Below, piece after piece: positions 1,392 to 24,203 of a stretch of DNA of 26,358 nucleotides. Within the stretch, counting starts at the first letter, position 1. Every line of letters begins with the position of its first letter. The translations under genes were made by a program, and so were the position numbers. The stretch is from an uncultured Candidatus Saccharibacteria bacterium (GTDB lineage: Bacteria > Patescibacteriota > Minisyncoccia > Minisyncoccales > PEYH01), in assembly GCA_964395745.1 (NCBI GenBank), contig CAYNAX010000001.1, positions 3,568-29,925 of the forward strand, read 5' to 3'. The notes below the pieces were generated by a model. The model ran no database searches. It saw only the letters and a program-made list of their open reading frames with translations, and was not told the origin of the DNA.

Positions 1392-1420
1392 ATACTACTT
1401 AAAAAGAAACTATTAATCAA
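1392..1420 (-). promoter_or_regulatory. Putative sigma70 promoter for tRNA-Arg/tyrS
   Basis: Minus strand TTGATT (1420-1415), N17, TAGTAT (1397-1392), ~21 nt upstream of the tRNA 5' end. Confidence 0.55.
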
Positions 1421-1742
1421 GGGGGTGGGGAGGCAGAGGAGCAAAAACCTCTTTATATTCTTCTTGTTCGGCTCTCCAAAATTCTTCTTGCCGCTTTCTC
1501 GAATATTCTAAAAATTTACTATACTCTTTTTCATTTATCTTCGCCGTAGGGACAATTATGGATTTATTTTCTTTTTCTGTAATTTCAATATAGCGCCAAA
1601 GATAAAGACAAATAAACCCTGTAAGCAAAATGGAAAGCAGAGCAAAAATCAAAAAATCATGCCTAGCGACAAAATATGCTGCCTGACTCAAAATTTTCTT
1701 TGCTTTTTGTTTATTGAAAGAAATTTTTTTTCTAAAAAACAT
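1413..1742 (-). CDS. Small single-pass membrane protein, last gene of the pilus operon (PilP position)
   Basis: One hydrophobic segment (FLIFALLSILLTGFICLYLW), overlapping the pilO end. The ATG at 1742 is preferred over the TTG at 1769. No lipobox is seen. Confidence 0.65.
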   Translation of the reverse strand: MFFRKKISFNKQKAKKILSQAAYFVARHDFLIFALLSILLTGFICLYLWRYIEITEKENKSIIVPTAKINEKEYSKFLEYSRKRQEEFWRAEQEEYKEVFAPLPPHPLD

Positions 1743-2283
1743 AAACTTTAATAAAAATATCTTCCACAATATATGTTTCTTTCTCTTTTGTTTGTTCTAA
1801 AGACAAGGAAACAGTAGAAACATTAATTATCCACTGGCTGGTTTCTAATTTCCTTAAAAATTGAAGCAGGGGTGTTAATTTTTTGCTTCTTAACCGTATT
1901 TTATAGCCCACAAATTCCCTGAAATCTCTATCTGTTTTTTGAATTTTCGTTGGGGAAATCTCTATCTCAAGCCCTAAATTTTCGGCCCATTGTTCTAACG
2001 ATTGCGTAAAACTCAAGGGGATTTCTCTATCAATAAAAAGATTGTCACTAACTAATTTTTCCATTTTATCAAGATTCTCTTTATATTCACCATAACTTTT
2101 CTCCAGGGCATGAAAATTGCTTACTTTTTGTTCAATGGTCGATATCTCTGCTTTCGTTTTCATATACTCTTGAATAATTGATTTCAGTTCTGGAAAAGAA
2201 CGGCCTAGAGCATACCAAGAAACCGCAAACGCTATTGCTATAAAAAGGGTTATTATTAAATTGTTTTTTGTTCTATTTTCCAT
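1732..2283 (-). CDS. pilO: Type IV pilus assembly protein PilO-like
   Basis: N-terminal TM helix, then a coiled coil and a ferredoxin-like C-terminus (LLQFLRKLETSQWIINVSTVSL). It follows pilM-pilN. Confidence 0.75.
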   Translation of the reverse strand: MENRTKNNLIITLFIAIAFAVSWYALGRSFPELKSIIQEYMKTKAEISTIEQKVSNFHALEKSYGEYKENLDKMEKLVSDNLFIDREIPLSFTQSLEQWAENLGLEIEISPTKIQKTDRDFREFVGYKIRLRSKKLTPLLQFLRKLETSQWIINVSTVSLSLEQTKEKETYIVEDIFIKVYVF

Positions 2284-2806
2284 ACTTAAAATCTAAACGA
2301 AATGTTACATCCTTGGTTTTTAAAAATCCAAGGATTTCGATTTCTACCTTTTCAAAGATTGCGCTTTCCTTTAATTTATCTCTATATTTCTCCAAAGATT
2401 CTAGGTTTTTAGCGTATCCCAAAAGATACCCTTTTCCTGTCTCCGGACTAAAATTAAAACCTTGAACTGACATTCCGGGTTCAAAATAAAAAGTCAAAGT
2501 TTTGAAAATCTCTGTTGTAAATATTTGGTTCTGATAAAATCTGTTTATTTGTTTAAAGGTAGAGTTCAGTTTTGAAATTCTTTTCTCTAGTTGATTTACC
2601 TGAAAAAGATCTACTTTCTTTTCTGCAAGTTCTATTTTTGCTTCTTCTAAATAGCTATTGGCTTTTATTTCAAAGACGAAAATCAAAAGCAGGAGAAAAA
2701 TTAGCAAAAATAAACAGATGCTTCCAATCACCAAAATCAGGCGAAGTTTTTTTTCTTCGTTTCTCTGTTGTAATTCTATTTTGGGAAGTAAATTAATATA
2801 ATTCAT
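2273..2806 (-). CDS. pilN: Type IV pilus assembly protein PilN
   Basis: N-terminal INLLP PilM-binding motif, then a TM helix and a coiled coil. It overlaps the pilM end. Confidence 0.88.
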   Translation of the reverse strand: MNYINLLPKIELQQRNEEKKLRLILVIGSICLFLLIFLLLLIFVFEIKANSYLEEAKIELAEKKVDLFQVNQLEKRISKLNSTFKQINRFYQNQIFTTEIFKTLTFYFEPGMSVQGFNFSPETGKGYLLGYAKNLESLEKYRDKLKESAIFEKVEIEILGFLKTKDVTFRLDFKYGK

Positions 2807-3887
2807 TTTCCTGTGCTGCTCTTAATGCTAACCCGATGGCATTAGTGTATTCTAGGGCTTGGTCTTTGGGGAAATTGTTTAAAACTTCAACATTAACTAA
2901 AGGATCTGCTAAATATGTGGGCAAACCAAACTCCTCTTGAAAATATTCTTTTAAGCCCTTCATTTTTGCCCCACCACCGGTTAACAATATTTTTTCTATT
3001 TTAATTCCGTTTACAAAGCTTGGGTCTTTCTGGGCTCTTGTATGATAGTAATCTATGTATTTTTTAATCTGCTCTGTAAGATCAGTGAGTGGAGGAATAA
3101 TTGCTTCAAAAGTCTCTTGCGCCTTCTTTGTTTTTTTTAAAATACCATATTTAATTTTCATCTTCTCTGCTTCTTGAGGATCAACCTTAAGGACCTTGCT
3201 GATGGATTTTGTAAAACTTCCTGAGGAAACAGGAATAGAGGTAGTAAACCTTAAAGAAGTACCAGAAAATATCATAAAACCTGTTCGGGTAGTTCCTATA
3301 TCTAAAATGAGAGAGGGAGGAAACTTTTCTTTTTTTTGGTCGAAAATAGCCCTAACGGTTGACTGTGATTCTGTCTCTAACGATATGGGTTTTAGACCTG
3401 CCAACTTCAAAGATTTCACACACTTATCAACAACCTTTTTTGGTAAGGCAACAAGCAATATATATGTTTTGTCTTTTTGAGTGTTTTCTATTATTACCTC
3501 CTGACAATCAAGATACACATCTTCAACTGAATAAGGAATGTATTTTTCTGCCTCAAAACGAATTGCTTGCTTTGCCTCCCTTTCTGTCATTTTTGGTAAA
3601 ATAATTACCTGAGAAAAAGTTTTCTCCTCTGGCAAACAAGCAACAACATAAGGAGAGGATATTTTTTTTCCTTTAACATTTTTTATTAGTTTCTTTATTA
3701 AAAGAGAGAGTTTCTCCGGCTCTTTTATTTCACCTGCCTTAACAATACCCGGGGGAACATCAACACGACCAAAACTAACAAGCACATTTTTCTTTCTTCT
3801 TTTTTCAATTTGAACAAGCTTAAGAGACCTGTCTGAGATATCCAAGCCAAAACTTTTTATTTTAAGGTTTAGTATATTGACAAGCAT
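2793..3887 (-). CDS. pilM: Type IV pilus assembly protein PilM (actin-like fold)
   Basis: GLDISDRSLKLVQ, AIRFEAEKYIPY, LILDIG and ILLTGGGAKMKGL motifs. Confidence 0.95.
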   Translation of the reverse strand: MLVNILNLKIKSFGLDISDRSLKLVQIEKRRKKNVLVSFGRVDVPPGIVKAGEIKEPEKLSLLIKKLIKNVKGKKISSPYVVACLPEEKTFSQVIILPKMTEREAKQAIRFEAEKYIPYSVEDVYLDCQEVIIENTQKDKTYILLVALPKKVVDKCVKSLKLAGLKPISLETESQSTVRAIFDQKKEKFPPSLILDIGTTRTGFMIFSGTSLRFTTSIPVSSGSFTKSISKVLKVDPQEAEKMKIKYGILKKTKKAQETFEAIIPPLTDLTEQIKKYIDYYHTRAQKDPSFVNGIKIEKILLTGGGAKMKGLKEYFQEEFGLPTYLADPLVNVEVLNNFPKDQALEYTNAIGLALRAAQENELY

Positions 3888-3888
3888 T

Positions 3889-4854
3889 TTACTTAAAGAA
3901 ATTTTCTTTAATGGTTTGAATAACTGGTGTTAAGCCTATTCTTGTTGCTTCCTTTAGTAAAGAATTTCGAGCAATTTTTTCGGCTATCGGAGGGCTATAT
4001 TTATAATATAATTCTATCAACTCTTTCCCAAGAGGTGTTTTTTCTAAATATTCGTCTCGGAATTTTCGCAAAATTACCACATCTTGCTCTAATGGAGAAC
4101 CATAAGCAGCCGTGGCAATAAAACAACCTCTCCCACCACTACCACCTCCGCCACAACCTCCTCCGCACTTCTCTTCAACTATAAAACTGCAACTGGTGCT
4201 GGAGGGTAAATAATAACCATCTCCCAGAAATTCTGTTTTTAGAGTGTAGGTTCCCGGAGCAATATTAAGCTTTAAATTTTTACTTGCTGTCCCTGAAGAA
4301 TTGGTCGTAGCGCTGGTTTGAAGGGAACCTAATTTGAACCTTATACTTTTGCCAGAAAGGTTTCCAATTTCATCGTCAACTTCTGAAAGAGTAGCACTTA
4401 AGGTTATTGTAGAATCTTCTGTACCTGAAAGAGGACCGGTATAAGAAATAGAAGTATCTTCTTTCTTAACCTGAAACTGAACTGTATCAGAGGAACCATA
4501 ATAGACATCATCTCCTTCAAAAATAATCAAAAGATCATAATTGCCTGAATTTTGGCTAAGTTTAATATCGGCTTGGGCTATTCCCTGACTATTTGTTGTT
4601 GCGCTTACCTCTTGGGTGCCTAAAATAAACTTTATTGTTTTGCCTAATAAAGGGTTGCCGCTTTCTTGTTCTATCAACTGCCCGGAAAGAATAACATAAT
4701 CAGAATACTGACCCTCTGTTGCTCCTTGATATTGAATATCAGTGTTAATTCTTGTTTCTTGAACAGATGAGGGGGTCAAAAAATAAGAATAAATTATCAG
4801 TGGTAAAAAGATTGTTAGTCCAAAAAAGATGAGAAAAAAATGTTTTTTTGACAT
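3889..4854 (-). CDS. Exported protein: N-terminal TM/signal, two tandem Ig-like repeats, Gly/Cys linker, CFI-box-CTERM-like domain
   Basis: Hydrophobic aa 6-26. Repeats at aa ~36-130 and ~131-227 share T.I.Y.G, L.GK.I.F.LG, SATTNS.G.A and G.Y.L...F.GD..Y..SS. Then KCGGGCGGGGSGGRG and GCFIATAAYGS..V..LR.FRD.YL..T.LG...I..YY..SPPIA. Confidence 0.85.
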   Translation of the reverse strand: MSKKHFFLIFFGLTIFLPLIIYSYFLTPSSVQETRINTDIQYQGATEGQYSDYVILSGQLIEQESGNPLLGKTIKFILGTQEVSATTNSQGIAQADIKLSQNSGNYDLLIIFEGDDVYYGSSDTVQFQVKKEDTSISYTGPLSGTEDSTITLSATLSEVDDEIGNLSGKSIRFKLGSLQTSATTNSSGTASKNLKLNIAPGTYTLKTEFLGDGYYLPSSTSCSFIVEEKCGGGCGGGGSGGRGCFIATAAYGSPLEQDVVILRKFRDEYLEKTPLGKELIELYYKYSPPIAEKIARNSLLKEATRIGLTPVIQTIKENFFK

Positions 4855-4868
4855 AATCCCTAAAAAGT

Positions 4869-6245
4869 TTATTCACTTACTTTTACTTCTTCCCACTTCA
4901 CTATTCTATAATTACCTGTGGCAGGAAAATAAGGAGGTGGGTTATATGCAAGGTTTGGCCTATAAGACATCTCTGTGTTTTTGTAACCTGATATTATTTT
5001 CCCTGTTTCGTCAACCCAGGTAAAAGTCCAGGTTTTATTGGTAATAATAGATCCTTCTATCTTAATAGAATTTCTTAAATTATAGGGGGCGTACCACCAA
5101 GGATAATAATATCTAATAACTCTTCCGTTCTGTGCCATCATTGCTGCTTTAACTGTTAAATCGTCCGGGGCGTAAAGAGGAATAACGATATCTTTTTGTG
5201 CAATTAAACCCAAAACTGAGTTTATTCCTGCATAATCTATATTACCATTAATTATAATTTTTTTCATCGTATTTGGGGTTTCAGGAAGTTTAGCCGCTAC
5301 AACTGTTGCCCTGCCATTAATTGTTCCATCAATCCAAACATTGTCTTCCACAAATATAGGTCCACAGTTTGAGGGTAAACTGTAGGTTGCATAAAGTTCA
5401 ACTGTGTCAAAATCATTGCTTTCATGTACCCAATCCTCACCATTATATCCCCAAACCTTTTGTTTAAGTTTTTTTATTTTATAAACATCGAGGGTGCCAT
5501 CTGAATTAAAGTGTAGATAATAACCCAAACCAAGATTGGGAAGATAAATTCCTCTTGTTTTGGCTTCGTTTTTCAGGTACGCTAAATCGTTTGAAATGGA
5601 ATCAAAATCAATTGGGCTTACTGGAAATTCCCACAATCCTAAATCTTTCCCGGGTCCCTCTCCCCAAATTCCTGGCTTCTCTTGGGGAGGAGAACAACCA
5701 TGTTCTTCTCCGCAAAGATACGTATCTTTGGCTGAAGTAGAAAGAGCATTCTGACTGCCATCCATTCTTATTCCACCGTTTGAATGAGATGGCCCTTTTA
5801 CTGCTTCGTTTTCTCCAAACCAAATATTAGAATTGCTTAAAAACGCGTAAGAAGTTATACTGTTTTTCATTAAGGTAATCTTAACAGCCCTTTTTCTGTC
5901 AGGAAAATCATTGGTCCAGCCGGTAGAAATAATCTTAATTCCCGGGCTGCACGCTGTTTCTTCTTCTATTGATAATTGATAATACCCGATTATATCTCCT
6001 GAAGTATTTTTGTAGTTATAGATTCCTGAAAAAGAAAAATCGTTAGGCCAATGATTAATGTGCCACTTAGCGAAATCTATTCCTGCTTCCGCGATATGAA
6101 GACTTTCTTCATACGCTGCTTTTTCTAAAGAAAGTTTGTGTTGAAATAAAAGAAAACTTAATACTCCCCCAAAAGATATCAAAAACACTCCTCCAAAAAT
6201 GAGAACAAAAATAACCAAAGAACCCTTTTGAAAAATCTGTTTCAT
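4869..6245 (-). CDS. PilX-like minor pilin with a large C-terminal domain
   Basis: Class III-like signal QKG|SLVIFVLIF lacking Glu5 (typical of PilX/GspK), followed by A...AEAGIDFA. Located in the pilus operon. Confidence 0.8.
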   Translation of the reverse strand: MKQIFQKGSLVIFVLIFGGVFLISFGGVLSFLLFQHKLSLEKAAYEESLHIAEAGIDFAKWHINHWPNDFSFSGIYNYKNTSGDIIGYYQLSIEEETACSPGIKIISTGWTNDFPDRKRAVKITLMKNSITSYAFLSNSNIWFGENEAVKGPSHSNGGIRMDGSQNALSTSAKDTYLCGEEHGCSPPQEKPGIWGEGPGKDLGLWEFPVSPIDFDSISNDLAYLKNEAKTRGIYLPNLGLGYYLHFNSDGTLDVYKIKKLKQKVWGYNGEDWVHESNDFDTVELYATYSLPSNCGPIFVEDNVWIDGTINGRATVVAAKLPETPNTMKKIIINGNIDYAGINSVLGLIAQKDIVIPLYAPDDLTVKAAMMAQNGRVIRYYYPWWYAPYNLRNSIKIEGSIITNKTWTFTWVDETGKIISGYKNTEMSYRPNLAYNPPPYFPATGNYRIVKWEEVKVSE

Positions 6246-6249
6246 AAAA

Positions 6250-6840
6250 CTAATCTTCTTTTAGATTTCTTAATAAAACATCTGTTTCTAACACAAAATT
6301 TTGGGGTGGGCGAGCAGGATTTACATTTACTACTAAATACACTCTCATTCTTTTTGTGTTTTTAAGATTGGCAGGAGGACCAAGTTCGTTTCCGTCTTTA
6401 TCAAAATAACGAAATATTGGAGGAGCATTTCTAACATATTGAGTTAAAGTAATTACTCGCTCCGAACTACTTGGATAACTAACCGGACAACATTGCGGCT
6501 CAATAATCCCTTTTTTAAAATTAGTTCCTTCTAAAAAATATCTTATTTTTTCCGTCTCTCCATCGTTATCAATATCGGAAAAAAAAGAAAATTCAAACCC
6601 TTCGGCTCTAACAATTGGAAAAGATCCGTCCTCTCCGGCCCGAGCCTCTCTGATTTCCTTCGCCATTGTTTCAATACCTCTTTGTGCCTCCTCAATACTT
6701 AATGCTTGCTGAAAAGTATAATCCTTGCCAAAATATCCAAACTCAACCAAACTAAAAACTGTTGTTGCTCCTAAAAGAAATATTAAAACTGCCAAGCCTG
6801 CTTCAATTAAAGTAAAACCTTTTCTTTTTCTGTTAATCAT
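6250..6840 (-). CDS. Prepilin-type minor pilin (PilW/GspJ-like)
   Basis: KRKG|FTLIE prepilin cleavage/methylation motif, hydrophobic helix, AQRGIETMAKEIREA. Confidence 0.88.
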   Translation of the reverse strand: MINRKRKGFTLIEAGLAVLIFLLGATTVFSLVEFGYFGKDYTFQQALSIEEAQRGIETMAKEIREARAGEDGSFPIVRAEGFEFSFFSDIDNDGETEKIRYFLEGTNFKKGIIEPQCCPVSYPSSSERVITLTQYVRNAPPIFRYFDKDGNELGPPANLKNTKRMRVYLVVNVNPARPPQNFVLETDVLLRNLKED

Positions 6841-8171
6841 ATTGGGGCCAAATAAATCTCTTTTGTTATTTCTCCTGAAACATAGAAGGTTTCTGTGTAA
6901 GAATTATATCCCTCCATCTGAATTTCTAAAGTATAGTTTCCTTCTTCTAAGGGTATAAAAAGGCTTTCTCCTTGAGAGTTTGTGGGTATGGTCTGGTCGT
7001 ATCCTGTACTGTTATAAAGACGAGTTGAAACAGAAAAAACCGGATCGCCCGTCGAAGCATCATAAACTTTAACCAGGCAGGAGTTCTGCGCTCCTAAAAT
7101 AAGCCGCACATCTTTTGTTTCTCCAGGCAATAAATCTATAGGCTGTGTCGTAGGTGTCCCGGGGGGTGATTCTACTCCTATAAGTTGAAGGTCCTCGGGT
7201 GAAAGTATGGAAAAATTATAAGAGTCCCATTCTAAATTCGAGATTTCTAATAAACCTGAGCTGTCTGTTTGCAAAATTTCATCTGTCTTATATACGGGAT
7301 CTCCAGAAGCATCTGTGCCTATGATCTTTTCTCCTTGTAGACGAAATTCAACATTCCCAATAGGAGGATATCCGTTTTCTTCAGAGCCTACAGTGCTAAC
7401 ATTCATTATTCCCAATAAATCTATTTCAAAACCTATCTCTGTGGTTTGATTATTAAAAACACTTACATGGGGTTTAAGAGGATTAGCAATTTCATCTTCT
7501 CCATATGTTCGATCTGTACTGTAACCTGTCTTGGTAACAGTAATCTGATAACTTTCAGTGCTTTCAGGCAAACCCAAAAGCACTAAATTACCCTGGCTAT
7601 CAGTCAGATAGTTAGCATCTATAATAGGGTCTACCTGATCATTATATATGTGAACTTCGGCGTTGGAGACGCCCTGATTCTCTGCGTCTTTTACATTAAT
7701 AGAAAGAATTCCCCCTCCAACACTTTCTTCTACGGTGGCAGGAACAATATCTGTAGCAAACAATACTTCTCCTGAATTTTCCCCTGCCCATGATACTCTT
7801 ACTTCTGCTTTTTTATAATCTGTTGGAGTAGAATCATCAGGAGATAATCCATCAGAAGGATCATCTACATAAACTATAGTGGTTTTAACAGTAAACTCCC
7901 CACCATTATAAGTTTTGATTTCTTCTTGAGGCACTGGACCAGAAGGTACCCCGCCTGTCGTTCCTACATTTTCGTAAGATAGGCTTCTAATCTCTTCAAT
8001 TCTTTGGTTTGCCAAAAAAATTGCTGTTGATCTTAATTTAGATTGAGCAACTACTTTTACGCTCAAAATATACATCCCCACAATTCCCCAAAAAACAATC
8101 CCGATCAGACCAATCCCTATAATGCTTTCTACCAAACTCATCCCTTTTTGGCTGTAGTAAAGCTTTAACAT
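6837..8171 (-). CDS. Prepilin-type minor pilin (PilV-like) fused to three carboxypeptidase-regulatory-like beta-sandwich domains
   Basis: QKG|MSLVE motif and A..LANQRIEEIRSLSY. Three repeats of the V.D.....V..A.V / TDS.G / Y...I...GY pattern. The ATG at 8171 is preferred over the TTG at 8198. Confidence 0.82.
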   Translation of the reverse strand: MLKLYYSQKGMSLVESIIGIGLIGIVFWGIVGMYILSVKVVAQSKLRSTAIFLANQRIEEIRSLSYENVGTTGGVPSGPVPQEEIKTYNGGEFTVKTTIVYVDDPSDGLSPDDSTPTDYKKAEVRVSWAGENSGEVLFATDIVPATVEESVGGGILSINVKDAENQGVSNAEVHIYNDQVDPIIDANYLTDSQGNLVLLGLPESTESYQITVTKTGYSTDRTYGEDEIANPLKPHVSVFNNQTTEIGFEIDLLGIMNVSTVGSEENGYPPIGNVEFRLQGEKIIGTDASGDPVYKTDEILQTDSSGLLEISNLEWDSYNFSILSPEDLQLIGVESPPGTPTTQPIDLLPGETKDVRLILGAQNSCLVKVYDASTGDPVFSVSTRLYNSTGYDQTIPTNSQGESLFIPLEEGNYTLEIQMEGYNSYTETFYVSGEITKEIYLAPI

Positions 8172-8181
8172 TTTAGAGGTT

Positions 8182-9384
8182 TTAGTGCATTGTGCCAATC
8201 ATTGAATAGATTGGCTTTATCATTGAAACCGCAAACAAAGCAATAACTCCTCCAATAACAAGCAGGAGGATTGGCTCAATAATTGAAGCCAGATTTTGAG
8301 TTGTATTGGTTACTTCTTCGTCAAAAAATTCTGCTAACCTTAATAAAACTTCAGAGGTTTGACCCGTCTCCTCTCCTACCTCCAACATTTGAACAAATAC
8401 TGGAGGATAAATCTCTGGAAATTGAGCAATTATTGAAGAAAGTTTTTTTCCTTTTTTTACATCTTTTGAGGCTTTTATTAAAACCTCCTTAAATTTCTCA
8501 TTAGAGACTGTCTCTGAAGTAATTTGTAGGGCTTCTACGATAGGCACACCGCCAGAAATCAAAGAGCTCAAAGTTCTGGCGCTATATGCGGTATTAATTT
8601 TTTTGATTAAGGTTGAAACAAATGGTATCTTTAAAACAAAATTATCCCAACTATTTTTAAGTTTGCTATTTCTTTTTAGAAGAATAATAAAGGCAATAAT
8701 CGAAAGTGGAATAAGCAACAAAAGATACCAATAATCTTTAAAATAATTTCCCAAATTCATTATTATTCTTGTGGTTTTGGGAAGTTCTATGTTTAAAGAC
8801 TTAAACGCTTCGCTTAATTTTGGAACAACCAAAACCAACATCACAACTCCAATTAAAATCATTGCAATTACTACTATCATAGGATACATTAGCGCTCCCT
8901 TTACCTTTGATCTCAATCGAAAATCCTTCTCTAAATGAGAGGCGAGAGTATCTAAAACATCTGGCAAGCCTCCAGTTTTTTCTCCCACCTTTACCATGCT
9001 TGAGAAAATTTTTGGAAAAACCCTTGGATATTCGGCAAGGGTTTCTGAAAAAGAACTGCCTTGAATAATTTTTTCTTTGATTTCTTGAAGGATTTTTTGA
9101 AAATATTTGTTTCTGCTCTGGGAGGTTAAGACATCTAAAGATTTAGGAAGAGAAACGCCAGCCGCAAGCATCACCTGTAGGTTTCTAATAGCCATCATTT
9201 TCTCTTTTAAAGGAACTCTTTTTAAACTTAAAAAACTTTTCTTTTGTTTGTCTAAAGAAGCTGAAATTAATAAAAAGCCCTGAGCTGAAAGTTTCTGGGC
9301 TAAGTCCTTCACATTAGCCGCCTCTTCTTTTCCAGAAACAGTTTCGCCTGATTCATTTTTTGCTAAATAACGATAAATGGCCAT
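8182..9384 (-). CDS. pilC: Type IV pilus platform protein PilC / GspF family
   Basis: N-terminal YRYLAKNESG, two T2SSF repeats (VGEKTGGL; VGEETGQT), ALMYP and IIEP motifs. Confidence 0.95.
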   Translation of the reverse strand: MAIYRYLAKNESGETVSGKEEAANVKDLAQKLSAQGFLLISASLDKQKKSFLSLKRVPLKEKMMAIRNLQVMLAAGVSLPKSLDVLTSQSRNKYFQKILQEIKEKIIQGSSFSETLAEYPRVFPKIFSSMVKVGEKTGGLPDVLDTLASHLEKDFRLRSKVKGALMYPMIVVIAMILIGVVMLVLVVPKLSEAFKSLNIELPKTTRIIMNLGNYFKDYWYLLLLIPLSIIAFIILLKRNSKLKNSWDNFVLKIPFVSTLIKKINTAYSARTLSSLISGGVPIVEALQITSETVSNEKFKEVLIKASKDVKKGKKLSSIIAQFPEIYPPVFVQMLEVGEETGQTSEVLLRLAEFFDEEVTNTTQNLASIIEPILLLVIGGVIALFAVSMIKPIYSMIGTMH

Positions 9385-9387
9385 AAT

Positions 9388-11133
9388 TTATTCAATTATT
9401 ACCCTCAAAACTTCTTCTATAGAAGTAATTCCTTGGGCTGCTTTTACAAACCCATCCTCTACCATCGTTCTCATTCCTTCTTTTAATGCCTGTTTTTGAA
9501 TTTCTTCATCGCTTACCTCTTGAGTGATTAATTTCTTTATTGTTTCTGTAACTGATAAAACCTCAAAAATACCGATTCTACCTTTATACCCTTCTTCGCA
9601 AGTTTTAGTGGGTTTTGGTCTGTAAAATTTAATATCGCGAATTGTTTTATTGCGCCCCTTTATTAATCCTTCTTCTTTTAAGATTTTTGTAATCCTTTCT
9701 AAGTCACAATATTTTGAAATTCTTTTTATGGCCGCGTCATCTAAATAATACTCTTCTTTATCTTCGCAAAGCCTCCTTACCAATCTCTGGGCTATAACTA
9801 TATTAAGGGTTGAGGCAATTAAAAAAGGTTCTACTTTCATATCTATCAATCTTGGAATTGCTCCAGCGGCGCTATTGGTGTGAAGAGTAGAAAGAACAAG
9901 ATGTCCGGTAAGGGCAGCATTTACTGCTAAAGAGGCGGTTTCATTATCTCTTATCTCTCCGACCATAATAATATCAGGGTCCTGCCTTAAAAGAGATCTT
10001 AAACCATTTGCAAAAGTTAAGCCAATCTCGGGTTTCACTTGGGTCTGATTAACCCGGGGCATTCTATACTCTACCGGATCTTCAATAGTAGAAATATTTA
10101 CCTCAGGTGTATTAAGAATTTCTATCATTGAATACAAAGTAGTTGTTTTTCCTGAACCAGTAGGACCGGTAACTAAAATCATTCCTGTAGGTTTTCGCAA
10201 AGCCATTTGAACTTCTTCTAGGTCTCTACCTCTTAATCCCAATGTCTCTAAGTTATAACCCTTTGATTCTTCTGGAAGGATTCGCATTACTACTTTTTCG
10301 CCGTTGATAACAGGCAGCACGGATACTCTCACAGAAAATTTGTTACCCCCGCTTTCAAATCTAAATCGTCCGTCTTGAGGTAGTCTGTGTTCATCTAGTT
10401 TTAGGTCTGAAAGCACTTTAATTCTCGCCACAATACCCGGAGCAATATTTTTAGGGAGAGTCATTACTTCTCTTAAAATTCCATCTATTCTATACCTTAC
10501 TAAAACCTCTTTCTCTGTCGGTTCTATATGAATATCAGAGGCGCGATCTAGAACCGCATGCTGAAGCAGAGTGTCAACTATTTTAATTATTGGAACTTCC
10601 TGAGCAATTTTTTCTAAATTGTCCTGTTTTTCTGCTTTTGTTTCGATTGTTTTTATGCCCTGCGCCTCTTTTTGAATAATTCTGCCAAACTCTGCACTGA
10701 GGGTTTTTTTGTATTGAGCAAGAGCATTTTTGATACTTTCTGGATCAGTAAGTCGGGGCAAAATTTTAAGATTAGTTTTCTTTTTTATAAAATCAATTGT
10801 CTGAAGGTCTTCTGGGTCAAGCATAGCCACTTCCAAATTTCTACCTTTTTTCCGAAAAGCAACAATATTATGAGCCCTAGCAATCGGTTCTGGAATAATC
10901 TCCAAAATTTCCTTGGGAATAATCTCGTCTTTTAAACTGATAAAAGGAATCCCAAGGATATATGCTTTTAAACGAATGAGTTCCTCGGGTGAAATTAATT
11001 TATCCAAAATTAAAACATCTTCCAGTTTTTTACCTGTTTTTTTTGCTTTCTCCTCTGCCTTTTTTAAATCTTTTTCTTTAACAAGGTTTGTGTCTAGAAG
11101 AAAAAGTTTGAGTTGTTGATCCTCAACCTTCAT
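9388..11133 (-). CDS. pilB: Type IV pilus extension ATPase PilB / GspE family (operon copy)
   Basis: Walker A GPTGSGKTT, Asp box TIEDPVE, Walker B RQDPDIIMVGEIRD, His box TGHLVLSTLH, and a long N-terminal domain. Confidence 0.95.
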   Translation of the reverse strand: MKVEDQQLKLFLLDTNLVKEKDLKKAEEKAKKTGKKLEDVLILDKLISPEELIRLKAYILGIPFISLKDEIIPKEILEIIPEPIARAHNIVAFRKKGRNLEVAMLDPEDLQTIDFIKKKTNLKILPRLTDPESIKNALAQYKKTLSAEFGRIIQKEAQGIKTIETKAEKQDNLEKIAQEVPIIKIVDTLLQHAVLDRASDIHIEPTEKEVLVRYRIDGILREVMTLPKNIAPGIVARIKVLSDLKLDEHRLPQDGRFRFESGGNKFSVRVSVLPVINGEKVVMRILPEESKGYNLETLGLRGRDLEEVQMALRKPTGMILVTGPTGSGKTTTLYSMIEILNTPEVNISTIEDPVEYRMPRVNQTQVKPEIGLTFANGLRSLLRQDPDIIMVGEIRDNETASLAVNAALTGHLVLSTLHTNSAAGAIPRLIDMKVEPFLIASTLNIVIAQRLVRRLCEDKEEYYLDDAAIKRISKYCDLERITKILKEEGLIKGRNKTIRDIKFYRPKPTKTCEEGYKGRIGIFEVLSVTETIKKLITQEVSDEEIQKQALKEGMRTMVEDGFVKAAQGITSIEEVLRVIIE

Positions 11134-11159: not shown

Positions 11160-11525
11160 TTATTGAATGGTTTCTTTTATCTTTTTGATAACTTCGTCCA
11201 GTTTATAATCTGATTTTACCAGGTATGCTCGCGCGCCTAAACTGACGGCTTTCTCTATTCCTTGGGGGTTCTCTATATTGGTGAGAACTATTACTGGAAT
11301 ATCTTTTGTTTTCTCATCCTCTCTTAATTTTGCCAAGAGATCTAATCCGTGCATTTTGGGCAGAATAAGGTCAAGAAGAATTAAATCTGGAAGTTCCTGC
11401 TGCGCCAATCTTAAACCCGTCTCTCCATCAAGAGCGCTGAGAACCTTGTATCCTTCTTTTCTCAGAGTCTCCCCTATGGTTTTTTGAAGCGTTGCTTCAT
11501 CTTCTATAAATAATATTTTTTTCAT
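11160..11525 (-). CDS. Single-domain response regulator (REC only)
   Basis: KILFIEDE, LILLDLILP phospho-Asp, VIVLT and YLVK conserved. No output domain. Confidence 0.93.
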   Translation of the reverse strand: MKKILFIEDEATLQKTIGETLRKEGYKVLSALDGETGLRLAQQELPDLILLDLILPKMHGLDLLAKLREDEKTKDIPVIVLTNIENPQGIEKAVSLGARAYLVKSDYKLDEVIKKIKETIQ

Positions 11526-11535
11526 AAAACCAGGG

Positions 11536-12465
11536 TTAATTCTTAGGTAGGATTATTGTAAAAATGGTTCCTTTGCTAAGTTTTGAAGAAAAATATATTT
11601 TACCCCCTAGACGCTCAACAATAGTTTTTACAATAAAAAGGCCAAGTCCTGAACCGCAAGGATCTTTCTCCATAGCATTGCTTGCTCTAAAAAATTTTTG
11701 AAAAAGAAATTGTTTTGATTTGTCAGGTATACCTATGCCTGTATCCTGAATTTTCAAGATAACTTTTTTTCTCCCCTTATTTCTTGTTATTATTCTCACC
11801 CTTCCTTTAGGTTTATTGTATCTAATTGCATTATCTAAAAGATTTTCAACAACAGTTTTTAGCAAATCCTCTGGCTGAGTTATCTCAATTTTGTCAGGAT
11901 TACAATCAAGCTCTACTTTTATATTGGAGGCCCTTATTAAGGGAGAGAAATTTTTTACCACTTCTCTTATTATTTTGTTAAGGTCGAAGGGGTGTTTAGA
12001 AAAAACTCTTGGGTTTTTAATTTTGGCAACGATTACCAGATCATTAACTAAATTGTCCATTCTTTGAATGTTTTCTTCAATAAGGTCGAAATATTCTTTA
12101 TAAGAAGGAGGGAGTTGCTTGATTTCTTTTTCTTTTTGGACACTCTCCAGCAACCATTTAAGGTTGGTAATTGGGGCCCGAAGTTGATGAGAAACAATAT
12201 TGGAAAAATCCTCTTTGAGTTTGTTTATTTCTACTAGATCTTCCAAACTTCGGGTGATAACATAAGCAATAACAAACAGGATTGCAGAAATAGCAGAAAC
12301 TATTAAAGCAACGATACGCGGATCATCAATATATCTTTGGCCCAGAAAATAGAAAAAGATAGTTGAGACAATGTTAATAACGCCCATCACCAAGAACAAG
12401 AACTGAGGACACTGCCACAGAGGAAGGCCTAAACTTTTACAGTTTGAGATAAATTTTAGTCTCAT
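11536..12465 (-). CDS. Membrane sensor histidine kinase (2 TM, HisKA, HATPase_c)
   Basis: Two hydrophobic helices, H-box SHQLRAP, N-box NLLDNAIRY, G1 DTGIGIP, G2 GSGLGL. Confidence 0.93.
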   Translation of the reverse strand: MRLKFISNCKSLGLPLWQCPQFLFLVMGVINIVSTIFFYFLGQRYIDDPRIVALIVSAISAILFVIAYVITRSLEDLVEINKLKEDFSNIVSHQLRAPITNLKWLLESVQKEKEIKQLPPSYKEYFDLIEENIQRMDNLVNDLVIVAKIKNPRVFSKHPFDLNKIIREVVKNFSPLIRASNIKVELDCNPDKIEITQPEDLLKTVVENLLDNAIRYNKPKGRVRIITRNKGRKKVILKIQDTGIGIPDKSKQFLFQKFFRASNAMEKDPCGSGLGLFIVKTIVERLGGKIYFSSKLSKGTIFTIILPKN

Positions 12466-14644: not shown

Positions 14645-15019
14645 CTATTTGTTTTTTGCTAAAACAAGTTTGATCTTTTCTACAATCTCCTCTGGAGTAA
14701 AGTGGGCTTTAATAAGAAAATCTACCGCTCCCAGATTAAGCCCTTTCTCTATTTCATCTTTCTGTCCTAAGTTTGAAAGAATAACCACCGGAATAGAAGC
14801 TGTCTTTTCGTCCTCCTTTATTCTTTTTAAAACCTCAAACCCATCAATACCTGGTAAAATTAAATCAAGAAGAATTAAATCGGGCATTATCTTTTTTGCC
14901 TTTCTCACACCATCTTCACCATCTATTGCTTCTTCTACTTCATACCCTTCTTTGATAAGCTTCTTGGCTATAAGCTCTCTTAAGAATTTATCATCTTCAA
15001 CTATTAAAATTTGTGCCAT
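14645..15019 (-). CDS. Single-domain response regulator (REC only)
   Basis: ILIVEDD, LILLDLILP, VVILS and FLIK. No output domain. Confidence 0.93.
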   Translation of the reverse strand: MAQILIVEDDKFLRELIAKKLIKEGYEVEEAIDGEDGVRKAKKIMPDLILLDLILPGIDGFEVLKRIKEDEKTASIPVVILSNLGQKDEIEKGLNLGAVDFLIKAHFTPEEIVEKIKLVLAKNK

Positions 15020-15058
15020 ATATAAGTTTTAATTTTATACAGCAATTTAAAGTGTTTG

Positions 15059-15436
15059 TTATTCTGGTTCTCCTAACACTGCTTTCACCTTTTGCAAAAC
15101 CTCTGCTGGGTCAAACTCTGTTTTAATAAGCCAATCCTTAGCTCCAAGTTGCTTTGCCTTATCTAACTCTACGGGTTGTCCTGAATTAGAAATAATAATG
15201 ACAGGAATATCCTTGATTGATGGATCTTTTTGCATTGCCTCCATTACTTCAAAGCCGCTTATCTTTGGCATTATTATATCCAATAATACCAAATCAGGGA
15301 CAATATCGCGAATAGCCTTCAATCCTTTTTCTCCGTCTAGGGCACAGTAAACATCATATCCCAAACCTTCTAGTTTGTCTTTTAGAAGGTCTAGTAAAAT
15401 TTCTTCATCTTCAATAATAAGTATTTTTTTTGCCAT
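15059..15436 (-). CDS. Single-domain response regulator (REC only)
   Basis: ILIIEDE, LVLLDIIMP, VIIIS and WLIK. No output domain. Confidence 0.93.
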   Translation of the reverse strand: MAKKILIIEDEEILLDLLKDKLEGLGYDVYCALDGEKGLKAIRDIVPDLVLLDIIMPKISGFEVMEAMQKDPSIKDIPVIIISNSGQPVELDKAKQLGAKDWLIKTEFDPAEVLQKVKAVLGEPE

Positions 15437-15465
15437 AAATTTTCTTTAATATTAACCCTTTTAAT

Positions 15466-15493
15466 ATTATATCATTTAAAATGCTAATGGCAA
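15466..15493 (-). promoter_or_regulatory. Putative internal promoter for the two receiver genes
   Basis: Minus strand TTGCCA (15493-15488), N16, with TGA-TATAAT extended -10 (15471-15466). Confidence 0.6.
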
Positions 15494-17053
15494 AGTAAAA
15501 TAAAAAGTTGTTCCTTTATTCTCTTGAGATTTAAACCAAATTTTGCCCCCATGCGCTTCTATAATATTTTTTGTGATAAAAAGCCCCAAGCCCGTTCCCT
15601 CTGTTTGCATTCTAACAACATTTGCTCCTCTAAAAAATTTTGTAAAGATTCTCTCTTGTTGATCTTTAGGAATTCCTACTCCAGTATCCTTAACAGAAAA
15701 AACAAGTTCACGCCTCTTTTTTCTCTCCTTAACAGAAACTTCTACCTTTCCTTTTTCCGGCGTATATTTAAGCGCGTTTTCTATTAGGTTCTTCACCGCC
15801 AAACTTATCTTTTCTACATCTACCTTTACTATTTTTTTGCCTTCAGAAATTTCCAGCTTAAATTCAATTTTCTTTTGTTTAGCATACTCTTTTAACGAAT
15901 TATATACCGATTCTACAATTTCTGAGAACTCTACAATTTTGGGCTCATAAACAAACCTGCCCTCTTCTATTCTGGCAACATTTAGAAGATCGTTCACTAA
16001 GTCAATCATTCTTTCATTTGTCTGATATGCTTTTAAAACAAGATCTTTGTCTTCTTTGCTTAATCTTTTTCCCTCTCTTAAAAGACTTAAACTCCATTTA
16101 ATAATTGAGAGGGGCGTTCTTAGTTGGTGAGCAGCAACAGATACAAATTGACTCTTCATCTGTTCTATCAATTTTTCTCTTGAAACATCGTGTAAAATAA
16201 CCAAAATAAGTTTTTCCTTCCCTTGTAATTCAACTATGCTGATGGTTATTTCCAAGAAAAATGATTTACTTATTGCCATCTCCTTTCTAAAAACCTCTTT
16301 TGTTTCCTCTCCCGCTATTTTAAAAATTTGGGCCCACCTTCTGTTTTTTCTCTTTAATGTTTTAGCATCTTTCCCTAAAACCTCTTCTGCTTTTGTTTTT
16401 AGAAATTCTTCGGCTTTAGGATTAATTAAAATTAATTTCTTTGTTTTGTTGAAAACCAAAATCCCATCTACAAAATTCTTAATAATAGCCTCTGTCTTTT
16501 TTCTTTCTTCTTCAGCCCGCCGACGGGCTTCTTCTGTGTCTTCTAATATATTTAAAAGGGCTTTTCGCGACTCCTCTAATTCTTTTGTCCTTTGAATAAC
16601 CTTCTGTTCAATTTCTTCTTGGATTCTTTTTAAGCCGCTAATATCAGTTATTGCGACAAAAAACCCCACAATGTCACCCTCCACATCTTTTCTTGCAGCA
16701 AAAGAAACCTTAACAGCAATCTTTTTTTTCTCTTTTGTTAGTAAGGTCAATTGTATGTTTTCTGTCTCCCCTGATTCTAATAGGTGCTTCTGAATTTTTT
16801 TAACTTTCTCTTTTTCTAAGAAAATCTTTTCTAACCTTTCTCCAACAATCTCTATTTGGTTGTATCCTGTTAGTTTTTCAAAAGATTTATTTGTATTGCT
16901 TATCACTCCCAAAGGATTTAAATCACAAATCGCTATGGGCAGAAAAGAAAAAAGATCGTTTAAATACGAAGAAACATTTAACAGTTCTTCTTTTGTTTCT
17001 TTGACTTCTTCTCTGAGTTTTAAAAATCTCTTTTTAGACAAAAAACAAAACAT
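15476..17053 (-). CDS. Cytoplasmic PAS-PAS histidine kinase
   Basis: No TM. PAS1 (NKSFEKLTGY..EIVG), coiled coil (VIQRTKEL), PAS2 (DGILVF..INPKAEEFL), H-box AHQLRTP, NLIENALKY, DTGVGIP and GTGLGL. Confidence 0.93.
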   Translation of the reverse strand: MFCFLSKKRFLKLREEVKETKEELLNVSSYLNDLFSFLPIAICDLNPLGVISNTNKSFEKLTGYNQIEIVGERLEKIFLEKEKVKKIQKHLLESGETENIQLTLLTKEKKKIAVKVSFAARKDVEGDIVGFFVAITDISGLKRIQEEIEQKVIQRTKELEESRKALLNILEDTEEARRRAEEERKKTEAIIKNFVDGILVFNKTKKLILINPKAEEFLKTKAEEVLGKDAKTLKRKNRRWAQIFKIAGEETKEVFRKEMAISKSFFLEITISIVELQGKEKLILVILHDVSREKLIEQMKSQFVSVAAHQLRTPLSIIKWSLSLLREGKRLSKEDKDLVLKAYQTNERMIDLVNDLLNVARIEEGRFVYEPKIVEFSEIVESVYNSLKEYAKQKKIEFKLEISEGKKIVKVDVEKISLAVKNLIENALKYTPEKGKVEVSVKERKKRRELVFSVKDTGVGIPKDQQERIFTKFFRGANVVRMQTEGTGLGLFITKNIIEAHGGKIWFKSQENKGTTFYFTLPLAF

Positions 17054-17056
17054 ATC

Positions 17057-17665
17057 CTATTTCCAACTTATTACATATTCGTGATAGGGATCATTTCTAA
17101 ACACGCACTTTGTTTCTTCTATTGAAACTTCTTTATCTCCTCCTAAAGCCAGACGGGCTATTTCTGAGAAATAGCCTTTATGATATTGACACATTATCGG
17201 GTGAAACTTATAACCTTTAACTCTTATCACTGTATATTTTTCAATTTCATTAAACTCAACTGGCTCAACTTCGCCAAAATCAAAATGTTTTGCCCAATAC
17301 CGAGGACTTTCTTCGAAACATCTTTTTGGAGAAATAAAATACTTTGTCAAAATTTTAAGAAAAAAAGAAAGTTTCACTGCCGATCTTCCCATTTCAAAAA
17401 TCCCTTCTTTGTTTAATCCCAAAATCTCTTTTGCTAAAAGAACAATTATCACGCTAATTGCCTCAGGATACATCTCCATGGGCTTTATCTCCTCTAAAGT
17501 AAGTTCTATACCAAGTTCTTTCATTCTCTTTTTTAATTGCTCTACCGCCTTCTCTCCTCCTTTAATTTTAATATAATCTATATCTGCTAAAATTACGCCC
17601 CCTTTTACATTTCCTGGAATTTTCATTAAACGTTTTACCTCTTTTGGGCTAAGTTTATCTTCCAT
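17057..17665 (-). CDS. Stand-alone V4R / H-NOX-like (DUF2378-like) putative ligand-binding protein
   Basis: N-terminus VKGGVI...G...V..I.P.E.YP..I..EMGR resembles the H-NOX/V4R fold pattern. The C-terminus has C159, E184, C187 and H195 in V4R-type metal-site spacing. The family is assigned from recalled motifs, not from a search. Confidence 0.65.
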   Translation of the reverse strand: MEDKLSPKEVKRLMKIPGNVKGGVILADIDYIKIKGGEKAVEQLKKRMKELGIELTLEEIKPMEMYPEAISVIIVLLAKEILGLNKEGIFEMGRSAVKLSFFLKILTKYFISPKRCFEESPRYWAKHFDFGEVEPVEFNEIEKYTVIRVKGYKFHPIMCQYHKGYFSEIARLALGGDKEVSIEETKCVFRNDPYHEYVISWK

Positions 17666-17687
17666 TTTAAGATTAATGTTTTACGGG

Positions 17688-18353
17688 TTAATTTTTCGAC
17701 CTATATTTTTCCAGTTCTTTCTCAAGTTGACGAATTCTCTGTTTTAATTCTATCATTTTTGTTTCTCTTCCTACTGTAAGTTTATGGAATCTTTCCAGTT
17801 GCTTTATCCTCTCTTGTAGTTCTTTTGTTCTTTCTTTTACTTGAGCGTCTAAATTCTTTGCCATTTCCTCAAGTTCTCTGGTTCTTGCTTTTACCCTAAC
17901 TTCTAAAACTTTTTTCTCTTCTTCTAGTTGATCTTTGGTTTCTTTGAGTTGGCCTATCATAAAATTGAATTCTTTTCCAAGTTGGGCTAATTCGTCATTC
18001 CCTTTAACTTCCACTCTTGTGTTTAAATCGCCGGCTGCAGCTCTTTTAACCACTTTCACCAACTCTCTAATAGGAGCAACAATCCTCTGGGTAAAGATTA
18101 CTGCAAAAAACATTGTCATTAATACCACAAAAACAAAAGTAGAGGCTGCCACAATCCATGTGTTAAATATATTTGCCTCCACATTACTAAACTCTTCAAG
18201 CGGAAGCATCTCTTTTAAAGGGTCTATTGCTGTTTCGTATCCGCGATTAATGATGTATGCGAAAATTAAGTTTGAAAAAATAGTAATTGCCAGAATACCA
18301 TAAAAAATTCTGAAAAAGATACTCCCTTGTTTTGCTCTTTGGAGTGGCTTCAT
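17688..18353 (-). CDS. 2-TM HAMP-domain protein with a C-terminal coiled coil and no catalytic output domain
   Basis: Two TM helices, HAMP (IVAPIRELVKVVKRAAAGDL...GNDELAQLGKEFNFM), then VKARTREL/VKERTKEL heptads to the stop. Confidence 0.9.
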   Translation of the reverse strand: MKPLQRAKQGSIFFRIFYGILAITIFSNLIFAYIINRGYETAIDPLKEMLPLEEFSNVEANIFNTWIVAASTFVFVVLMTMFFAVIFTQRIVAPIRELVKVVKRAAAGDLNTRVEVKGNDELAQLGKEFNFMIGQLKETKDQLEEEKKVLEVRVKARTRELEEMAKNLDAQVKERTKELQERIKQLERFHKLTVGRETKMIELKQRIRQLEKELEKYRSKN

Positions 18354-19891: not shown

Positions 19892-19920
19892 TTGACTTTT
19901 GGAATTTTTAGAATTAAATT
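19892..19920 (+). promoter_or_regulatory. Putative sigma70 promoter of the DHH-like/pilB2 operon
   Basis: TTGACT (19892-19897), N17, TAAATT (19915-19920). The ATG at 19931 is 10 nt further on. Confidence 0.55.
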
Positions 19921-19930
19921 AAGAAAGATT

Positions 19931-23495: not shown

Positions 23496-24203
23496 GTGAA
23501 AAAGATCTTGGCTAAAATTTTGCTTTCTTTTATCATTATTTTCTTTTGGGGTAAAGCAACCTGCTATGCTTGGGAAAATTCTATAGTAATCAATGAAATT
23601 GCCTGGACGGGAACTCAAGATGGTTTTACAAAAGAATGGATAGAACTTTATAATCCTTCTGATAGGAATATAAACATAAATGGTTGGCGTCTTATAGATA
23701 AACTTGGAAAAATAGACATTACCTTAAAGGGAGAAATTCCTCCTTTTTCTTTTTTTGTTTTAGAGAGATCGTCAGACAAAACTCTTCCTGATATTAAGGC
23801 AGATATTGTTTATAGTGGGGCTTTGAAAAATAGCGGAGGCGATCTTGTATTAATCAATAAAGAAGGTAAAATAATAGACCAAGTTTCTTGTAAAAGCGGT
23901 TGGTTTGCAGGAGATAATAAGACAAAGAGAACTATGGAAAGAAGGAGCGCTTATGTATCTGGATCAGATCCTAACAACTGGCAAACAAGTATTTATCCTG
24001 GTGGAACCCCCAAAAAGAAAAATTTGATTCTTGTGTCTAAAAAAGAGGCAGAAAATGCTTCAAATCAGGAAAGGGTAAATCTAGAGAATTTTTCTCGTAA
24101 AAACTCTTTTTTCTCTAAATTTCTCTTGGCAAGTATTTCTTCTTTTTCTTTGACTTTTCTTGTTTCTAAATTTAAATTTAATAAAGAGAAGCAAAATTAT
24201 TAA
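23496..24203 (+). CDS. Exported lamin-tail-domain (LTD) protein with a C-terminal hydrophobic segment
   Basis: Signal-like N-terminus (GTG start), IVINEIAW..EWIELYNPSD..ININGWRLID and LKNSGGDLVL..IDQV LTD pattern, hydrophobic C-terminus FLLASISSFSLTFLV. Confidence 0.8.
   Translation: MKKILAKILLSFIIIFFWGKATCYAWENSIVINEIAWTGTQDGFTKEWIELYNPSDRNININGWRLIDKLGKIDITLKGEIPPFSFFVLERSSDKTLPDIKADIVYSGALKNSGGDLVLINKEGKIIDQVSCKSGWFAGDNKTKRTMERRSAYVSGSDPNNWQTSIYPGGTPKKKNLILVSKKEAENASNQERVNLENFSRKNSFFSKFLLASISSFSLTFLVSKFKFNKEKQNY

Follow-up and report, generated by a model that had tools for sequence, protein, structure and literature searches.

The window analysed here is a stretch of 26,358 nt from an assembly labelled as an uncultured Candidatus Saccharibacteria bacterium (GCA_964395745.1, contig CAYNAX010000001.1, positions 3,568 to 29,925), and it carries a type IV pilus (T4P) operon in which an additional gene lies between those for a PilX-like large minor pilin and PilM. 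This gene, referred to below as the CFI gene, is predicted to encode an exported protein with two immunoglobulin (Ig)-like domains and a CFI-box domain, and it had been the subject of an original prediction made from the sequence alone. The coordinates of the gene, its domains and its neighbors are collected in Table 1. The spacing given in that prediction was confirmed: 14 nt (ACTTTTTAGGGATT) separate the stop codon of the PilX-like gene from the ATG of the CFI gene, and the TAA of the latter is followed, after 1 nt, by the ATG of pilM. The downstream genes (1413..3887, minus strand) overlap or abut one another, and beyond the last of them, for a 118 aa membrane protein, come the genes for tRNA-Arg and tyrosyl-tRNA synthetase (TyrRS).

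Domain architecture and N-terminus

The N-terminal hydrophobic segment, the repeat motifs, the Gly/Cys linker and the CFI signature were all found where the original prediction had placed them. SATTNSQG occupies residues 84-91 and SATTNSSG residues 181-188, the linker sequence KCGGGCGGGGSGGRG spans residues 229-243, and the parts of the CFI-box signature, GCFIATAAYGS, LRKFRD and YYKYSPP, lie at residues 243-253, 262-267 and 283-289, respectively. Recognition of the C-terminal part as a CFI-box-CTERM domain is borne out by the NCBIfam model NF041770 (CFI_box_CTERM), which matches residues 244-312 end to end (model positions 1-69/69) with 99.4 bits (E 7e-29), against a curated cutoff of 40 bits. 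The two Ig-like repeats of about 97 aa are also homologous to each other as proposed, with 39/97 identical positions between residues 36-131 and 132-229 and an alignment score of 153, compared with 30 +/- 5.8 for 500 shuffles (z = 21), and two stretches of the protein match the Pfam family Big_3_5 at 51.1 bits, above the gathering cutoff of 35.5 bits. An AlphaFold2 model (36-sequence alignment, mean pLDDT 90.7) predicts a helix at residues 3-26, beta-sandwiches at 38-130 and 134-227 (pLDDT 97-98), disorder at 232-242 and four helices at 245-319. Foldseek searches with the Ig part returned only generic tandem Ig/macroglobulin matches. The possibility that the Ig domains arose by duplication from the neighboring 453 aa modular pilin was considered and set aside, the similarity being a weak match to a generic motif (E 0.02).

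The protein ends 9 residues past the CFI-box, and its sole hydrophobic segment is the N-terminal one. The prepilin motif G(-1)/E(+5) was not found in the N-termini of the window protein or of its non-fused orthologues, and searches of the window protein with the N_methyl and TIGR02532 profiles gave no match, so a prepilin reading of this region was rejected. In all non-fused orthologues a Pro is kept and is followed, six residues on, by [ILV]-x-[SA]|[YW], a pattern that resembles a signal-peptidase I site and suggests that the N-terminal segment may be cleaved. There are four cysteines, at residues 222, 230, 234 and 244. It had been proposed that three of these (230, 234 and 244) form a cluster for disulfide or covalent attachment, and this did not hold, as Cys230 and Cys234 are shared only by the window protein and a relative 81% identical to it, while Cys244 alone is invariant. 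Mean identity among the orthologues is even along the protein, at 0.52 for the first Ig-like domain, 0.55 for the second and 0.54 for the CFI-box.

Table 1. Features of the CFI gene, its operon and the phage-borne CFI-box proteins (positions are those of the window unless a locus is named).
Feature	Position	Strand	Evidence or remark
CFI gene, whole	3889..4854	(-)	ATG-start open reading frame (ORF), 321 aa; family matches, structure model, at least 15 full-length orthologues
N-terminal hydrophobic helix, residues 3-26	4777..4848	(-)	AlphaFold2 helix; putative Sec signal anchor or cleavable signal peptide
Ig-like domain 1, residues 36-131	4462..4749	(-)	Beta-sandwich, pLDDT ~98; Big_1/Big_3_5-type matches; 40% identity to domain 2
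Ig-like domain 2, residues 132-229, Big_3_5	4168..4461	(-)	Best Big_3_5 stretch residues 145-224; beta-sandwich
Flexible Gly-rich linker, residues 230-243	4126..4167	(-)	64% GC; pLDDT <50 at residues 232-242
CFI-box-CTERM domain	3892..4125	(-)	Residues 244-312 match NF041770; helices extend to residue 319; no transmembrane (TM) helix behind
Histidine kinase	11536-12465	(-)	First gene of operon
Response regulator, single-domain	11160-11525	(-)	Precedes pilB
PilB	9388-11133	(-)	Operon head
PilC	8182-9384	(-)	Operon head
453 aa modular pilin	6837-8198	(-)	CarboxypepD_reg domains, 56 bits
196 aa minor pilin	6250-6840	(-)	Pilin-like
458 aa PilX-like large minor pilin	4869-6245	(-)	2,865 homologues, some with PF14341 (PilX_N); always precedes CFI gene
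PilM	2793-3887	(-)	TIGR01175 182 bits, PF11104 153 bits
PilN-like gene	2273-2806	(-)	Overlaps or abuts neighbors
PilO-like gene	1732-2283	(-)	PilO match, weak
118 aa membrane protein	1413-1769	(-)	Last of pilus gene string
Zinc-ribbon CFI-box protein	L173 5182-6237		Clostridioides phage pCD1602_4, CP069348.1; 85 bits
994 aa CFI-box protein	L174 2412-5396		Podovirus MW202701.1, encoded between portal and major capsid; 52 bits
TPR and HNH_3 endonuclease-domain CFI-box proteins	L175-L182		IMG/VR contigs

The pilX-pilM junction and its occupants

Full-length orthologues share 43-83% identity with the window protein. Those at 83, 81, 64, 61, 49 and 43% identity all have a PilX-like gene on one side and pilM on the other, at distances of 1-40 nt, and every non-fused full-length orthologue with readable context is co-directional in this same slot (loci L001-L008, L010-L014, L093, L094, L123 and L154, with partial views at L105 and L138), which agrees with the expectation that homologues of the protein would be associated with T4P loci. 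The genes bordering the operon vary among the loci and include those for TyrRS, PheT, FtsH and HtrA. Promoter and terminator consensus scans of the operon gave no signal beyond chance inside it, and the best promoter-like site (12501-12472) is upstream of the kinase gene. Because the gaps on either side are only 14 and 1 nt, no internal promoter or terminator stands out, and position and tight spacing are kept in orthologues down to 43% identity, the CFI gene is likely to be co-expressed with the pilus genes, as had been suggested. Its GC content and GC at third codon positions (GC3) match those of the neighboring genes, which points to long residence in the operon. With this composition, and with no archaeal sequence among the best 80 genome matches, all of which are bacterial, recent horizontal transfer is unsupported, and so is the archaeal donor affinity that the original prediction had raised. 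A tree of the 70-residue CFI-box domain was unresolved.

The PilX-like protein has about 2,865 homologues, and those carrying a name are from Patescibacteria (Nealsonbacteria, Pacebacteria, Gribaldobacteria, 'Patescibacteria group'). Among 80 metagenome loci picked solely by PilX similarity, 74 were informative, and the CFI gene was present in six of these and absent from the other 68. The pilX-pilM gaps of the non-carriers are mostly 3-215 nt, and three operons of PilX relatives have an identical gene order with nothing co-directional at the junction. In a neighbor-joining tree of the PilX-like proteins, the carriers fall mainly into one clade, in which one non-carrier is nested and appears to represent a single loss, plus a separate pair. 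The claim that the protein is not a standard T4P component is consistent with this distribution, and also with the lack of any match to a pilus family. Taken from gene order and phylogeny, the CFI gene appears to be an old, vertically kept and lineage-restricted insertion in a conserved T4P operon of the type found in the Candidate Phyla Radiation (CPR), neither a core part nor a transient passenger.

In a sister clade, the same junction holds small genes unrelated to the CFI gene, which have no Pfam match and each encode a signal peptide, a Gly/Pro-rich linker and a small domain. Junction ORFs of 147-212 aa on the opposite strand occur at L092 8387-8875(-), L095 2059-2502(-), L097 7400-7975(-), L110 7411-7971(-) and L113 3527-3970(-), and a co-directional ORF of 194 aa occurs at L155 7435-8019(+). 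Thus the pilX-pilM junction has the appearance of a site where different lineages place different genes for exported proteins.

Outside T4P operons just one full-length relative was found, P0015 (locus L009 843-2183), a protein of 446 aa in which the two Ig-like domains and the CFI-box align with those of the orthologues (46% identity). Its signal region is replaced by a prepilin N-terminus (MRKNKFG|FTLPQ...; TIGR02532 17.2 bits, cutoff 16.3) and residues 7-101 are GspG-like. The 3' end of the L009 contig reads ...SEEHTSELQSQVYISR, and looks like an assembly artefact. No further pilin-CFI fusions were seen among 120 + 138 + 120 inspected matches.

The contigs carrying five of the orthologous operons (L010-L014) bear conflicting labels, these being 'bacterium', Candidatus Omnitrophota, Candidatus Saccharibacteria and Flavobacteriaceae. 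Some of the labels or bins of these metagenome-assembled genomes are probably wrong, because the PilX-like family of the operon is named from Patescibacteria lineages. The organism is most likely a member of the Patescibacteria (CPR) from hydrothermal-vent sediments, and it belongs to a small lineage whose bacteria are probably ultra-small. The idea that the organism is an episymbiont fits an operon family of this CPR/Patescibacteria type.

Regarding the operon itself, the genes for the 196 aa and 453 aa pilin-like proteins together show weak N_methyl, PilV and ComG matches. In each operon of this type examined (the window, L004, L005 and L090-L092), pilB directly follows genes for a histidine kinase and a single-domain response regulator, which suggests that the pilus operon is under two-component control. 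The order of these head genes, pilC included, is shared by all related operons. The operons of the window, L001-L008 and L090-L092 end with a gene for a membrane protein of 94-118 aa after the PilO-like gene, and genes for a secretin (PilQ) and a prepilin peptidase are absent from them. Elsewhere in the window, a second regulatory block (14645-18353) encodes two response regulators, a PAS histidine kinase, a weak V4R-like protein and a HAMP protein. A second ATPase of the PilB/GspE family (432 aa, 21019-22317, plus strand) matches positions 173-563 of the PilB model and is without the N-terminal MshEN-type region of the operon PilB; the 373 aa ORF ahead of it (19892-21013, plus strand) has no family match. 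A protein of 235 aa (23496-24203, plus strand) has a signal-like N-terminus, a Lamin Tail Domain (51 bits, cutoff 34.3) and a C-terminal hydrophobic stretch, and may be another small surface protein of the organism.

The CFI-box family in bacteria and phages

A search with the CFI-box domain against a database of 1.84 billion cluster representatives (clustering at 50% identity) recovered 19,942 representative clusters at E <= 1e-3 and 6,212 at E <= 1e-10. Genome matches came from Dehalococcoidia/Chloroflexota, Nitrospirota, Desulfobacterota, Omnitrophota, Brocadiia, Aminicenantes, Armatimonadota, Actinomycetota and some Proteobacteria, and there are often several copies per genome, as in Dehalococcoidia and Nitrospirota. 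The domain is distributed over at least 10 bacterial phyla, plus phages. The passengers to which it is joined include GDSL lipases, subtilisins, FN3, PKD and VCBS domains, beta-propellers and InlB-type repeats. One orthologue of the window protein (P0004) is already named CFI-box-CTERM in NCBI; there is no Pfam model for the domain, and no publication on it or on its signature motif was found in the literature searched.

Proteins matching NF041770 share the CFIATAAYGS...LRxFRD...YYxYSPP signature at the C-terminal side of an exported protein, and in most family members a poly-Gly run lies ahead of the CFI Cys. Behind the CFI-box, a hydrophobic 15-mer is found in about 80% of cases (95/117 matches and 113/138 representatives) and is followed by an Arg/Lys tail, which suggests that the domain is usually the membrane-proximal module of C-terminally anchored exported proteins. 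The window protein shares the signature and the linker but has neither the usual TM helix nor the basic tail, carries a hydrophobic segment at its N-terminus instead, and is encoded in a T4P operon. The absence of the C-terminal helix and tail extends to the whole pilus-operon subfamily, a point missed in the original prediction, and this subfamily appears, unlike most CFI-box proteins, to have lost its C-terminal TM anchor.

Away from this subfamily, no recurrent neighbor gene or processing enzyme was found beside generic CFI-box genes in 75 loci, where the sole recurrent neighbor cluster consisted of antisense ORFs across the CFI domain. A general linkage of CFI-box genes to T4P was likewise rejected, with PilB or PilC in the flank at only 3/~75 loci, and the pilus-operon group is the only CFI-box subfamily found to have a consistent operon context. 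The residue preceding the CFI Cys is variable (G, H, R, E, T, W, V, K, N or P), and cleavage at G|C by a lipobox-dependent signal peptidase (Lsp) or a prepilin peptidase was rejected on the grounds that the -1 position varies too much. The CFI-box of the pilus subfamily stays near the family consensus, and its divergence from generic, non-pilus CFI-boxes (<=64% identity) is not above that from its own distant orthologues.

Giant proteins with apparently internal CFI-boxes were also encountered, and this arrangement was discounted after two cases were read in detail and proved to be tandem genes fused by gene calling. Four giant 'proteins' with two CFI-box matches each (P0259, P0260, P0261 and P0267) are apparently fused tandem genes, and in P0259 the signal peptide of the next protein is visible behind the first TM helix and tail. 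Tandem arrays of CFI-box genes were seen at L040, L043, L056, L074, L083 and L089.

In an 82-sequence alignment of the CFI-box, eight residues are invariant (C244, F245, I246, A247, R266, G276, Y283 and P288), and no His, Lys or Ser is among them. A model of the domain alone, built on this alignment, predicts four helices (pLDDT 93.2, pTM 0.79). Fold searches of the PDB with this domain gave nothing significant (best E = 4.4), a PDB sequence search found no relative, and the profiles Peptidase_S74 and Hint did not match at E <= 10. The best fold match in BFVD is a phage protein (TM-score 0.61, root-mean-square deviation (rmsd) 2.6 A, 24% identity over 72 columns, E = 1.0) of 492 aa that is annotated 'intramolecular chaperone auto-processing domain', and this likeness is treated as a lead only. 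It is one of the best viral matches to the model (window positions 3892-4137), the BFVD phage entries A0A6J5QZ65 and A0A6J7X5H9, which gave TM-scores of 0.59-0.61, rmsd of 2.6-2.7 A, 24-25% identity and E 1.0-2.6.

Phage-borne CFI-boxes were found by tblastn and a scan of viral contigs, and were above the curated cutoff where tested (Table 1). They tolerate the motif variants CYIATAV and CFLTTAA, and include proteins that lack both a signal peptide and a TM helix. Because the domain is present on such proteins, the CFI-box is not a sorting tag that depends on export but a module that stands on its own. A disulfide as the sole role of its invariant Cys is unlikely, because the domain occurs in very different contexts that include these signal-less phage proteins.

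Possible roles in the pilus

Non-pilin adhesins of the PilY1/PilC type are found at the pilus tip in the type IVa pili of, for example, Pseudomonas and Myxococcus, and in the classical minor-pilin operon of these pili, with the order fimU-pilVWXY1E, pilY1 comes directly after pilX. The window protein is comparable in being a predicted Sec-exported non-pilin encoded in the minor-pilin block right after pilX, and it would likewise be an accessory to the fiber rather than part of the motor. It differs in having no vWA domain or beta-propeller, in showing no sequence or profile similarity to PilY1, and in being about one third of its size; no match to a PilY1 or Neisseria PilC domain was found in Pfam or NCBIfam at E <= 0.1, and the model contains only Ig domains and helices. 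A second comparison is with modular type IV pilins that carry C-terminal accessory domains, such as PilB and PilC of Streptococcus sanguinis. The PilX1 and PilX2 proteins of Saccharibacteria are built in the same way, and host attachment of CPR/Patescibacteria relies on type IV pili, with minor pilins whose accessory domains mediate host binding (PMC11623550). Modular CPR pilins have extra beta-rich host-binding domains, P0015 is such a pilin with the Ig-Ig-CFI part as its accessory domain, and the 453 aa modular pilin is encoded in the operon of the window itself, whereas the window protein is without the prepilin cleavage and methylation motif. By analogy, then, the window protein may be placed as positionally like PilY1, with the accessory domains of modular CPR pilins as its nearest functional counterpart, and it has the defining features of neither group.

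The reading favored here, though held to be slightly short of an even chance, is that the CFI gene product is a lineage-specific, exported accessory or adhesin-like protein of a CPR-type T4P. Its gene would have entered the minor-pilin block at the junction of the PilX-like gene with pilM, so that the protein would be made in amounts tied to those of the minor pilins and PilM. Once exported by the Sec pathway, the protein would stay at the cell surface beside or on the pilus, with its N-terminal helix and/or the CFI-box holding it there, the latter as a docking or self-association module, and the Ig pair would form a rigid arm of about 8 nm for attachment or spacing. Since most sister operons work without the CFI gene, the protein would modulate the function of the pilus, for example in attachment to a host or surface, rather than build it. 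The missing C-terminal TM anchor is what a module leaving the membrane with the pilus would need, and the fusion in P0015 fits an Ig-Ig-CFI module that works on or with the fiber. The role of adhesin or surface anchor put forward in the original prediction is likewise a putative one.

A number of observations weigh against this reading. About 90% of the sister operons are without the CFI gene, and generic CFI-box genes are not linked to T4P. The CFI-box of the subfamily is not visibly specialized for a pilus partner, and the Ig domains are no less conserved than the remainder of the protein, contrary to what is typical of diversifying, host-binding adhesins. The locus was found in none of the RNA sequencing runs. 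P0015 is a singleton on a contig of 2.7 kb with an artefact-like 3' end, and this point is weighted lightly. Because conservation is even across both Ig domains and the CFI-box, and the latter is close to the family consensus, these features argue for a conserved partner and not a fast-evolving host ligand.

The protein may instead have no function in the pilus at all, the pilX-pilM junction being a permissive, well-expressed slot in which a gene for some surface protein has hitch-hiked. Such an explanation stays alive because the site tolerates insertions: the sister clade has its own unrelated small genes there, on the opposite strand at five loci and co-directional at L155, most operons are empty at the junction (gaps of 3-215 nt), and CFI-boxes are joined to many unrelated passengers across many phyla. 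It is nevertheless rather doubtful, as the exact position, direction and tight spacing are kept across operons that have diverged to 43-48% identity and whose flanks have changed, and as all non-fused orthologues with readable context are in the operon while the lone outsider is fused to a pilin. A structural role in the envelope is another possibility, and also a rather unlikely one. The protein would then be membrane-anchored with its N-terminus inside and C-terminus outside, made in step with PilM/N/O, and would form a collar or guide for the fiber across the cell wall or S-layer, in an envelope without a secretin, as a functional analogue of PilP or of secretin-associated parts. The 21-residue N-terminal hydrophobic segment predicted as a continuous helix, the 1 nt gap to pilM, which suggests translational coupling, the lack of a secretin gene in the operons examined, the even conservation, similar to that of PilM/N/O, and the membrane-adjacent position of the CFI-box in most family members are all in keeping with this. 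However, a part that some 90% of close operons with the same machinery do without is not a required structural one, the conserved Pro(-6)/[ILV]-x-[SA] pattern points to possible cleavage of the N-terminal segment, and no similarity was found to PilP, TsaP or other alignment or secretin-associated families, the profiles of the PilM/N/O/P alignment proteins included.

Two further explanations concern the chemistry of the CFI-box. It could be a Cys-dependent self-processing or oligomerizing module, in which the invariant first Cys is the nucleophile and which, in the manner of the intramolecular chaperones of phage tail spikes, folds or multimerizes the Ig part, cuts at X|Cys and releases or transfers the Ig-Ig arm, for example onto the pilus; elsewhere such a module would free exported passengers from their membrane anchor or multimerize them. 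The Cys opens the domain directly behind a flexible linker, the residue before it is free to vary, the domain is found in very different contexts including signal-less phage-borne proteins, and the top BFVD fold match, a phage protein, has an auto-processing annotation. Like Peptidase_S74, the CFI-box is C-terminal, follows a linker, starts with a nucleophile-type residue and has phage copies; it differs in that its first residue is a Cys, with no Ser-Lys dyad, and in having no profile similarity or significant PDB match. Given that the BFVD match has E = 1.0 and involves a part of the 492 aa protein that cannot be read from it, that the PDB search gave nothing significant and the Peptidase_S74 and Hint profiles no match, and that there is no invariant His, Lys or Ser to act as a partner residue, this mechanism is considered improbable, both for the family at large and for the loading of the Ig-Ig arm on the pilus. 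Least likely, to the point of being very improbable, is a classical C-terminal sorting signal by which a dedicated, sortase-like membrane enzyme attaches the protein covalently to the envelope. The 'CTERM' name invites it, several copies per genome occur in Dehalococcoidia and Nitrospirota, and most CFI-box proteins do end, as in the PEP-CTERM/exosortase, LPXTG/sortase and PGF-CTERM/archaeosortase systems, in a signature followed by a TM helix and a basic Arg/Lys cluster. In those systems, unlike here, the signal is a short motif and not a folded, helical domain of 70 residues; the CFI signature lies some 70 residues upstream of the TM helix rather than adjoining it, the pilus subfamily has no TM helix or basic tail, and some proteins bearing the domain have neither a signal peptide nor a TM helix. 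No partner enzyme is nearby and no neighbor gene is conserved in 75 loci, and the varied residues at -1 do not fit Lsp or prepilin peptidase.

If the protein is only a hitch-hiking surface protein, the finding is an ordinary one. As an accessory of the pilus, a conserved non-pilin insert in the minor-pilin block would be a candidate lineage-specific attachment factor of CPR bacteria. For the CFI-box, with its roughly 20,000 clusters, the pilus locus is the first consistent genomic association, and it is with a T4P operon; together with the signal-less phage copies, the locus shows that the domain is autonomous, which narrows the hypotheses worth testing. Were the self-processing idea to prove true, no natural system would be simpler for studying the chemistry of the family than the TM-less pilus form and its pilin-fused relative. 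The locus offers an entry point to a very large, uncharacterized domain family.

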